NCBI GenBank assembly: GCA_965250285.1
Contig: OZ252299.1
Location: 2,272,001-2,336,000, forward strand
DNA from: Myxococcota bacterium
GTDB lineage: Bacteria > Myxococcota_A > UBA9160 > UBA4427
Length of the DNA stretch: 64,000 nucleotides
Direction of reading: 5' to 3'
In this document: positions 48,382 through 50,340 of the stretch, piece by piece
Layout of the letters: every line of letters starts with the position of its first letter
Numbering within the stretch: the stretch's first letter is position 1
The notes under the pieces: generated by a model
What the model was told of the DNA's origin: nothing
Seen by the model: the letters and a program-made list of their open reading frames with translations, nothing else
The model's database searches: none
Program-made: the position numbers and the translations under genes

Positions 48382-49122
48382 TCACGCGAGATGCGATTGC
48401 AGTGCGGCGCGAACCTTCTCGGGATCGGAGCGTTGCTGATAGTTCTCGGACTGATCCATCCAGACGATCGTGCCGGAGGCGTCCGCGAGAATCGTCGTCG
48501 GCACCGGCTGGGGTCGCCCGGGCGGCCCGGTCTGGATCAACTGATTTCGCAACCCGAATCGATCGGTCACCTCGAGGTCGGGATCGGCGAGCATGATCGC
48601 CTTCAGACCGTGCTTCGTGCGGCCTCGCGCGATCGCACCGGGCGAGTCAGTACACACCGTGACGATCTGAACGCCCTTCGCGTCGAGCTCGGGCCGAAGC
48701 TCTTCCCATCGCCGCAACTCGGCGACACAGTAGGGTCACCAGTGGCCGCGGAAGAACTTCAGCAGGATCGGCCGCCCCTCGATGCCCGAGAGCGTGAAGG
48801 GCTTCGCATCGTCGTCGAGGGCCGTGACGTCGGGCAGCTTCGTGCCGACACGCACGGCGTCGGGCGCCACCTGCTGGCGGCTGATCGCGACGAGCACCGT
48901 GAAGAAGCCCCCCGCCGCGAGCCCGAGCCCACCGAGCAGGCCCCCGATCCAGCCGGGTGAGCTCGTCAGGGCCGAGGCACCGAGCCCCGCCGCGACGACC
49001 CAGCCGACGACGAACGGGGTGCGCGCGCCCTCGAGGGCCACAGCGTTGGCGCGGCGAAACCAGAGCACCGAGGTGACGGCGAGGATCGTGAAGGAGACGA
49101 TTCCGAGTGTGAATCCGCTCAT
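48382..49122 (-). CDS. Membrane-anchored peroxiredoxin-like (AhpC/TSA) selenoprotein, 246 aa with Sec at TGA 48736-48738
   Basis: The two track ORFs are in one frame and join as LLKFFRGHW-(TGA)-PYCVAELRRW, a UxxC motif. SECIS-like hairpin follows. About 3 N-terminal TM helices. Confidence 0.88.
48705..48738 (-). other. Bacterial SECIS-like element
   Basis: UGA-CCCUACUGU-GUCGCCG-[AGUUG]-CGGCGAU-GGG: 7-bp stem, loop starts 16 nt after UGA, G at loop position 2. Confidence 0.7.
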
Positions 49123-49311
49123 GGCCGAGGCTCCTTCTGGCTGGCACAGCTGGATCGAACCGACCGGGCGCTGCAGCGAGTCTCGCACGCAGCGCGCCGC
49201 CGGGCGACCCGATCCGCCTGACGGCTTCGATGCCGGAGGGTACGCTTCGTTCTCGATGCTCGCGGCCGTCCGAGCCGAACCGAACCGCGACCGCCCACCA
49301 CCGAGGTCCTC

Positions 49312-50340
49312 ATGGAACGACCGATCCTGCTCGCCGGCGTGCCCGGCTCCCCCTACTCGCGCAAGATGCGCGCCGTCCTGCGCTACCGACAGATCCCGCA
49401 CCGGTTTCTGTCGGCGCACACGACTGCCGTGAAGGGCCTGCCGCCGACACCGCGGCCGCTGCTGCCAGGCATGTGGTTGCCCGAAGGCGACGACGGCTGG
49501 ACGGCGGTGAGCGACTCGACCTTTCAGATGGCCGAGCTCGAACAGCTCTACCCCGAGCGAAGCCTGCGCCCGGTCGACGGGGGCATCGCCTTCATCGACG
49601 ACCTGATCGAGGACTACGGCGACGAGTGGGTGACGAAGCCGATGTTCTTCTACCGCTGGGGCATCGACGAGAACGTCGATCACGCGTGCAATGTGCTGCC
49701 GCTCTGGAACATCGGGGTCCCCGATGCGTTCGTCGAGCAGTTCCGGGGCTCGTTCGGCCAGCGCCAGATCGATCGGCTCTCGGGCGTCGTCACGGGCGAC
49801 CTCGAGGTCTGCGGACCGATCATCATGCAGAGCTACGAGCGACTGCTCGCGATCCTGCGCGACCGGCTGGCCGCGAGCCGCTTCGTGCTCGGCGAGCGGC
49901 CGGGCGCGGGCGATTTCGGCCTGTACGGCCAGCTGACCCAGCTGGTGGGCGTCGAGCCCACTTCGATGGCCGCGGCGCGCGCGATCGCGCCGCGCGTCAT
50001 GAGCTGGGTCGACGTCGTCGAAGACCTCTCGGGGCTCGAGGTGTCGGGCGACGCGGGCTGGGACGGGCGCGACGCCGTACGCGAAGGCCTGCGCGACCTG
50101 CTGGTCGAGATCGGCCGCACCTACGTCCCCTTCATGCTCGCCAATGCCGCGGCGGTCGACGCCGGCGACGAGCGGATGGAGTGCGAGATCGACGGCCAGA
50201 AGTACTGGCAGAAGTCGTTCGGCTATCAGCGCAAGTGCGTGGGCTGGCTGCGCGAGAAGTACGCCGCCCTGGCCGACGACGATCGCGCCTTCGTCGACGC
50301 GACCCTCGCCGGCACGGGCTGCGAGGCGCTGGTGGCCTGA
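49312..50340 (+). CDS. Glutathione S-transferase family protein
   Basis: GVPGSPYSRKMRAVLRYR, SDST, EDYGDEW, FVLGERPGAGDFGLYGQL. Confidence 0.88.
   Translation: MERPILLAGVPGSPYSRKMRAVLRYRQIPHRFLSAHTTAVKGLPPTPRPLLPGMWLPEGDDGWTAVSDSTFQMAELEQLYPERSLRPVDGGIAFIDDLIEDYGDEWVTKPMFFYRWGIDENVDHACNVLPLWNIGVPDAFVEQFRGSFGQRQIDRLSGVVTGDLEVCGPIIMQSYERLLAILRDRLAASRFVLGERPGAGDFGLYGQLTQLVGVEPTSMAAARAIAPRVMSWVDVVEDLSGLEVSGDAGWDGRDAVREGLRDLLVEIGRTYVPFMLANAAAVDAGDERMECEIDGQKYWQKSFGYQRKCVGWLREKYAALADDDRAFVDATLAGTGCEALVA

Follow-up and report, generated by a model that had tools for sequence, protein, structure and literature searches.

An interrupted reading frame

In a stretch of 64,000 nucleotides from a Myxococcota bacterium (hereafter the window), two open reading frames, 48736-49683 and 48382-48717, share one frame and are separated only by a TGA. 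A reading made from the sequence alone had proposed that this TGA encodes selenocysteine (Sec) and that both frames belong to a single membrane-anchored enzyme. We asked whether the TGA is indeed read as Sec and, if so, what the protein does and on which side of the membrane it does it.

Both halves are present in the list of open reading frames, in one common frame, as had been described. The gene coordinates given at the time were correct, with the strand left unstated; translation of window:48382-49122:- puts the gene on the minus strand, from 49122 to 48382 (Table 1). It is one frame of 246 codons with a likely ATG start at 49122, and its sole interruption is the TGA at 48738-48736, codon 129, within K-F-F-R-G-H-W-(TGA)-P-Y-C. 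No match to a sigma-70-type promoter was found between 48000 and 49400, and the intergenic region aligns poorly with the locus from the same genus. Among public runs, none with RNA was listed as containing the sequence, which is uninformative about expression.

Table 1. Features of the selenoprotein locus (positions in the window)
Feature	Position	Strand	Remarks
Selenoprotein gene, 246 aa	48382..49122	-	Three membrane helices and a Prx-like thioredoxin-fold domain; translation, PF00578 82.6 bits (cut-off 26)
In-frame TGA, codon 129	48736..48738	-	Very likely selenocysteine, first position of U-P-Y-C
Bacterial SECIS hairpin GUCGCCG-AGUUG-CGGCGAU	48708..48726	-	7-bp stem, loop AGUUG; loop 16 nt past the UGA
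Cys132, predicted resolving cysteine	48727..48729	-	Alignment
Three predicted membrane helices, residues 3-26, 34-52, 57-79	48886..49116	-	Structure models (pLDDT 93) and charge bias; predicted N-out/C-in
Prx-like catalytic domain	48385..48867	-	Nearest fold AhpE/BCP, Z 21.8, rmsd 1.9 A, 151 residues
Pro208 of P-V-P-T-T, where peroxiredoxins have their catalytic Arg	48499..48501	-	Thioredoxin/ResA-type cis-Pro, predicted cis
Likely ribosome-binding site AAGGAG	49131..49136	-	8 nt upstream of the ATG; sequence reading, putative function
Divergent GST-family gene, 342 aa	49312..50340	+	Recurrent but minority neighbour of the selenoprotein family

Homologues carry Cys or TGA at codon 129

If the TGA is a Sec codon, homologues should have either Cys or TGA at this column, as the sequence-only reading had expected, and this is what the alignments show. 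A protein search gave 157 matches in total; the 120 homologues listed are full-length, 45-60% identical to the selenoprotein, and all of them have a Cys at column 129 and another at 132. In the DNA of 61 genomes (its own and 60 relatives), the 41 matches with E<1e-40, found in 34 of these genomes, each carry exactly one TGA, which is always at the codon-129 column in the full-length sites that were inspected (n = 32). Furthermore, a scan of GTDB confirmed 230 stretches, the best 80 of which hold 81 sites, 80 with TGA and one with TGC; according to the records, these 80 come from Myxococcota/Deltaproteobacteria, Gammaproteobacteria, Acidobacteriota, Binatia and others. Cys132 is invariant in both forms (95/95 Sec and 136/136 Cys rows).

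Potentially, the TGA could be a true stop or an error, that is, the locus could be a pseudogene, two genes, or a gene with a miscalled TGC or TGT. Gene callers do end the protein at this point, as had been anticipated: when the 87-residue membrane part was compared by phmmer with 1.84 billion representatives, 30 of the 48 matches ended exactly at the UGA motif. The other 18 are shorter or have unrelated tails, and no further intact fusion of the membrane part was evident by eye among the 48. However, the TGA is kept over many genera at about 50% protein identity, the half of the protein downstream of it is conserved as strongly as in the Cys forms, and the synonymous sites of the hairpin that follows are frozen in the TGA forms only. 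As for a base-call error, three public runs, all of one study and possibly of the source sample, gave contigs that agree with the window and have no differing letter between 48300 and 50400. We consider a stop or an error to be effectively refuted.

The genome also has the means to insert Sec. We found all four of the genes that the sequence-only reading had proposed to look for, namely selA, selB and selD above cut-off and a tRNA-Sec with the anticodon TCA (selC). They are not clustered: selC, selB, selA and selD lie scattered at 2.05, 4.61, 5.01 and 5.31 Mb of the contig G000:C1. Among the 47 other TGA-carrying genomes, selA is above cut-off in 45, the exceptions being G008, with two selA pieces, and G068, with a weak match only. 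In the one Cys-form genome tested, for which completeness is not given, selA had no match.

A hairpin frozen at synonymous sites

The hairpin that had been pointed out 9 nt past the UGA was borne out. According to PMC13188914, a bSECIS element has a loop of 3-9 nt, a stem of 4-16 bp, a G within the first two loop positions, a distance of 16-37 nt from the UGA and an MFE <= -7.5; the hairpin, which begins 9 nt 3' of the UGA, fits this model with a distance of 16 nt, the loop AGUUG, 7 bp and -13.7 kcal/mol. Its z-score is -2.57 in a 36-nt window and -0.82, -0.55 and +0.42 in three longer ones. Since the value is low only in the shortest of the four windows, folding energy alone is weak evidence, and the case rests on conservation.

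To quantify the conservation, we compared 118 sites that remained after identical contexts had been dropped, 96 with TGA and 22 with Cys, most of the latter coming from a pattern scan for the Cys form. Letter for letter, the 18-nt hairpin occurs in 89 of the 96 TGA genes and in none of the 22 Cys genes. In its four degenerate stem codons (GTC, GCC, CGG and CGA) the dominant codon makes up 98-100%, compared with 37-65% in 18 flanking degenerate codons, and the Leu of the loop is encoded by TTA or TTG in 92 of the 96 TGA genes. This nearly letter-identical element spans genes with a local GC content of 48-75% and about 50% protein identity. The stem is nearly invariant. A simple bSECIS filter is less selective, as it passes 90 of the 96 TGA genes but also 6 of the 22 Cys genes.

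One gammaproteobacterial Sec subclade (L103, L117, L118 and L120, including "Marine gamma proteobacterium HTCC2143") has Lys rather than Arg at +8, and its hairpin is weaker (-7.8 to -12 kcal/mol) and has a larger loop, which makes it a variant SECIS. The near-invariant form offers a clean natural SECIS standard and a search probe.

In summary, four independent lines, that is, the Cys of the homologues, the conserved TGA, the frozen hairpin and the Sec machinery, make it very likely that the UGA at codon 129 is read as Sec. SelB bound to the hairpin would, with the same certainty as this reading itself, deliver the residue, and judging from the sequence Sec would take the place of the nucleophilic first Cys in a CxxC of the thioredoxin type. 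The central proposal, a 246-aa Prx-like UxxC protein with UGA as Sec, thus passed every computational test; the three observations named beforehand as speaking against it (a residue other than Cys in homologues, a genome without Sec machinery, a sequencing error) were all absent.

Reductase or peroxidase?

Residues 92-237 match PF00578/PF08534. No NCBIfam model reached its cut-off for the selenoprotein: ResA scored 42.4 bits (cut-off 170), TlpA 25.4 (230) and DsbE 15.6 (123). The Deiodinase domain was not among the Pfam matches at E <= 0.01, and the core of mouse Dio3 gave a Z of only 13.6. An AlphaFold model of the whole protein (pLDDT 93, pTM 0.88) has the peroxiredoxin fold: the best matches are 5id2 (AhpE; values in Table 1) and 3drn (Z 21.7, rmsd 1.6, 146 aligned residues), and true peroxiredoxins score Z 21-22, compared with 15-18 for ResA/TlpA (ResA 17.9). 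ResA is the best sequence relative in the PDB.

The catalytic residues give a different picture from the fold. The peroxiredoxin motif P-x-x-x-T/S-x-x-C/U is absent, the positions of its P and T being filled by R125 and U129 in gap-free alignments to 5enu and 2cx3. The catalytic Arg is absent as well; that of 5enu (R-S-T-F-L-I-D) aligns with Pro208, which is invariant in 95/95 Sec rows. Since the peroxiredoxin triad is missing, the protein is likely a thioredoxin-type U-x-x-C reductase that, at the surface of the membrane, likely acts as a selenol/thiol reductase. It presumably resembles PRX_like2 (cd02970) of the CDD. W21, Q83, K122, R125, H127, E135, R138, H171 and R231 are also invariant in all 95 Sec rows, suggesting that a conserved site lies where the membrane part and the catalytic domain adjoin. 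Caulobacter PrxL, a Prx-like protein that lacks the same residues, had no detectable peroxidase activity (PMC3322552), which favours a disulfide-type reductase, though Sec may change matters.

By analogy with established CxxC chemistry, the selenolate of Sec129 would attack an oxidised substrate, probably one that is lipid-soluble or membrane-bound, such as a disulfide or a sulfenylated protein or small molecule. Cys132 would resolve the adduct to an Se-S bond, and thioredoxin or glutathione would then re-reduce the enzyme. We find this sequence of attack, resolution and re-reduction reasonably probable.

On the other hand, the protein could be a dedicated peroxidase for lipid or organic hydroperoxides that works with the GST next door and glutathione. 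A peroxide or glutathione link had been hinted at by the sequence-only reading, which correctly described the selenoprotein gene as divergent from a GST gene (the gap is 189 nt). That its nearest folds are the AhpE/BCP/Tpx peroxiredoxins fits this alternative, and so does the neighbourhood. Of 92 Sec loci, 9 have a GST of this family no further than 1.5 kb away (8 of the 68 with full flanks), compared with 0.8% for a random position in the genome of the window, although some of the queries were taken from these same loci, a single genome supplied the background, and related loci do not count as independent. The control families are not enriched (SDR 3/92 against 4.6%, LLM 4/92 against 2.7%), and the GST arrangement relative to the selenoprotein gene differs between loci in several ways, which suggests repeated events. 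The hint is only partly borne out: the Pro, Thr and Arg positions of peroxiredoxins are lost, and PrxL, lacking them too, showed no peroxidase activity. We consider a dedicated peroxidase unlikely and prefer the reductase.

Gene neighbourhood

A fixed GST operon was considered and rejected, as most loci have no GST and the arrangement varies. The GST-like protein of the window has S-P-Y-S at its N-terminal motif and about 10 relatives in its own genome; no sequence relative better than E 0.0055 was found in the PDB. It appears to belong to an expanded group of uncharacterised GSTs.

Downstream of the selenoprotein gene, at window:45413-48118 (-), there is a YfiR/HmsC-like gene (PF13689) and then a CHASE8-HAMP-MCP chemoreceptor; a YfiR gene also adjoins the selenoprotein gene in a genome of the same genus (G001). 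The Cys-form orthologues (L139-L160) have a different neighbour. In 14 of 20 distinct loci they are divergent from a conserved TetR gene (TetR_C_1), which none of the Sec loci has. This neighbour suggests that the Cys forms are induced by a small molecule.

The membrane domain and its orientation

The N-terminus had been described as an unusual three-helix membrane domain of about 95 residues. Three helices are indeed predicted, but the domain is shorter, about 80 residues, and its description as unusual is not supported: all of the family has it, whether in the Sec or in the Cys form, and a dataset from 2008 already contains Sec orthologues of full length that carry it. Modelled alone, it again gave a confident three-helix model (pLDDT 94). 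A fold search with it returned designed helical bundles as the best matches (Z 8.2), hence no specific relative and no proof of a new fold. A relay through the helices of the DsbB/DsbD kind was rejected because they contain no conserved Cys; 64 of 95 Sec rows have none at all.

With three helices, the catalytic domain shares its side of the membrane with loop 1, while the N-terminus is on the opposite side together with loop 2. The cytoplasmic side can be predicted by the positive-inside rule (PMC11867995), and we calculated the K+R bias between the two sides after rows more than 90% identical had been removed (91 Sec and 120 Cys rows left). A quick maximum-likelihood tree of the 91 Sec rows and 44 of the 120 Cys rows, midpoint-rooted and without an outgroup, separates a clade of 33 members, all Sec, with an SH-aLRT of 100. 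We call it clade B; it was defined from the tree and not from charge. The tree requires three changes between Sec and Cys and hints at Cys reversions.

Outside clade B the bias is uniform. It is positive in 58/58 Sec rows (mean +5.3) and in 120/120 Cys rows (mean +5.5), with +6 for the protein of the window; loop 1 has 3.7-4.0 K+R, and the N-terminus and loop 2 have 0.0-0.1. The result for this type (the query type) is stable under three choices of boundaries. The basic loop 1 (WFRR...R) is thus predicted to be cytoplasmic, and so is the catalytic domain of the query type, in a modelled N-out/C-in topology. The basic residues of loop 1 would, with good confidence, fix this orientation, and the thioredoxin-fold domain would face the cytoplasm as a reductase at the membrane surface.

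A clade with reversed charge bias

Of the 33 clade-B rows, 25 have a negative K+R bias, 6 a bias of zero and 2 a positive one (mean -1.2). The N-terminus has 2.3 K+R, loop 2 has 1.8, and loop 1 has 1.9 together with 1.8 D+E, so that loop 1 is neutral; the linker is acidic. The net charge bias is negative in 32 of the 33 rows under all three boundary choices. Across homologous loops, the K/R distribution is thus reversed between the query type and clade B, and the catalytic domain of clade B is predicted, on this model, to be periplasmic.

The genome of the window has a clade-B copy, too, at G000:C1:3873447-3874184, with a K+R bias of 0 and 1.55 Mb away from the first. Eight genomes have two classifiable copies, and in seven of them (G000, G006, G021, G027, G035, G038 and locus L113) there is one copy of each type; the additional copies were typed by FFRAHW and TM3-Pro markers rather than by the tree, and the second copy of G008, a fragment, was left out of the count. 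G006 has the two types in tandem, and in L113 about 5 kb separate them. The copies of L111/L138 are both clade B.

The neighbours of the two types fit the predicted flip, with reservations. Of the 33 clade-B loci, 7 have a DsbD-family gene directly upstream on the same strand, compared with 0 of 59 others; among further clade-B loci, it is found in 1 of 3. All nine DsbD-family loci checked (the seven and two near-duplicates) have a Lys eight residues after the first Cys. This Lys is typical of ScsB, which reduces periplasmic proteins (PMC3322552). The loci with an ScsB neighbour form one subclade and therefore represent about one evolutionary event. For GST neighbours, the two types (8 of about 59 non-B loci, 1 of 33 in clade B) do not differ significantly (Fisher p 0.15); further non-B loci had one in 2 of 5 cases.

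In the genome of the window, in the region G000:C1:3870977-3874184 (L161:4978-7320, L050), the clade-B Sec paralogue is directly preceded by the ScsB-type DsbD gene and followed by a luciferase-like monooxygenase. About 5 kb downstream there is a GST that is 45% identical to the GST of the window.

Could the query type itself face the periplasm, as TlpA, ResA and CcmG do, with the charge differences between the clades leaving orientation unchanged? W-U-x-x-C and P-T-T resemble ResA/TlpA, and one subclade of the family does follow a DsbD-family gene. However, this gene is found in clade B only and goes back to essentially one event, the ResA and TlpA models remain far below their cut-offs (42 against 170 and 25 against 230), and the bias of the query type is positive in every row. 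We think that a periplasmic query type is improbable and keep to the cytoplasmic placement.

We are slightly inclined to the view that the family was duplicated and one Sec clade flipped; cells with both types, this one included, would then have this kind of selenium redox enzyme at the cytoplasmic as well as the periplasmic face of the inner membrane, the outward copy being fed by ScsB. The clade-B paralogue would perform the same task on the periplasmic side, with ScsB as its electron source, and the inward copy is predicted to be fed by cytoplasmic thioredoxin or glutathione. Alternatively, the two types may form an antiparallel pair, or clade B may have a mixed (dual) orientation, rather than being enzymes of two compartments. 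The joint occurrence of the types in seven of the eight classifiable genomes, close together in G006 and L113, would agree with this, as would the weak K+R-only bias of clade B, which is zero in the copy discussed here. On the other hand, most gene-bearing genomes have a single strong match (two in 7 of 34), the copies of this genome are far apart, and the net charge bias is negative in nearly all clade-B rows. We therefore regard an antiparallel pair or dual orientation as improbable.

Taken as a whole, the explanation we find moderately probable is a Sec-reading U-x-x-C reductase of the inner membrane that faces the cytoplasm, plus a periplasmic paralogue fed by ScsB. Two points speak against it: by fold, the protein is closer to true peroxiredoxins than to ResA/TlpA, and with Sec it might act as a peroxidase even though the triad is missing. 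If the flip is real, the pair directly tests the role of the enzyme on each side of the membrane, with ScsB as a candidate electron donor of the outward copy, which would then be a periplasmic ScsB substrate that contains selenocysteine. It would also be an example, among redox enzymes, of topology inversion by charge reshuffling.

Comparison with known systems

The selenoprotein is not a new class. It was catalogued in 2008 under "Prx-like 1" in the GOS data (PMC2398784), with which it shares PF00578 and UxxC (here U129-P-Y-C132); "Prx-like thiol:disulfide oxidoreductase" is the class name in a review of 2026 (PMC13188914). In GOS Dataset S1 there are 17 occurrences of FFRGHW/FFRAHW (PMC2398784). 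Compared by eye, JCVI_READ_1929089 and _1947009, under the "Prx-like 1" heading, contain all of the three-helix N-terminus, and a run of 22 residues, KFFRGHWUPYCVAELRRWEELR, is common to JCVI_READ_1092403976278 and the selenoprotein (PMC2398784). With 225 members, Prx-like UxxC proteins were among the commonest marine selenoproteins (PMC2398784), yet they are still without an assigned substrate. The GOS set is one broad bin; the membrane subfamily, its orientation and its neighbours are undescribed in the accessible parts of that source (PMC2398784), and the word "membrane" is absent from its main text. As the supplements were searched by motif and heading only, this does not establish that no description is in print.

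What is new here is the split of the family by membrane charge bias and the predicted pair of an inward and an outward enzyme. Our literature search, with most subscription papers outside its scope, found neither an oppositely oriented selenoenzyme pair nor an account of the topology of the subfamily. The analysis also corrects a systematic annotation error, as a widespread selenoprotein is stored as a 128-aa "membrane protein" and an orphan fragment. There are probably more unannotated cases. Three distant Prx-like matches in the same genome have one TGA each (G000:C1:2346179-2346628, 1311442-1311924 and 4424366-4424623; L051, L053 and L057) and are probably further selenoproteins; L057 reads F-Y-R-G-F-W-(TGA)-P-P-C, with a similar G-A-G-U-U-G hairpin. 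Related genomes contain two other Prx-like subfamilies with TGA and differing hydrophobic N-termini (L171-L176; F-Y-R-G-D-W-(TGA)-P-F-C and F-Y-R-G-H/Y-W-(TGA)-P-F-C). Sec proteins of the Prx-like kind with a membrane anchor are thus a recurring feature of these organisms.

Among characterised families, the BCP/PrxQ/AhpE peroxiredoxins have the closest fold, and Cys132 of the selenoprotein is at their peroxidatic position; the differences are P to R125, T to U129, R to P208 and the three-helix membrane domain. In the PxxxTxxU Sec-peroxiredoxins Sec is at the peroxidatic position (PMC13188914), whereas here it is at the position of the Thr. With ResA, TlpA and CcmG the protein shares the W-C/U-x-x-C and P-T-T motifs and the membrane anchoring, but it is below the cut-offs of these families, has Sec, has three helices instead of one anchor or signal peptide, and, in the query type, is predicted to face inwards. 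The Caulobacter PrxL genes are near scsB (PMC3322552), and clade-B copies likewise follow an ScsB-type DsbD-family gene.

Proteins of opposite orientation within one family have precedents. RnfA and RnfE are reportedly oppositely oriented paralogues. Phytoplasma FtsH has paralogues of predicted opposite topology, with K/R reshuffled between loops (PMC6981957), as between the query type and clade B. Unlike either of these, the pair described here would be a selenoenzyme with a soluble redox domain and an ScsB neighbour that matches the compartment of the outward copy.
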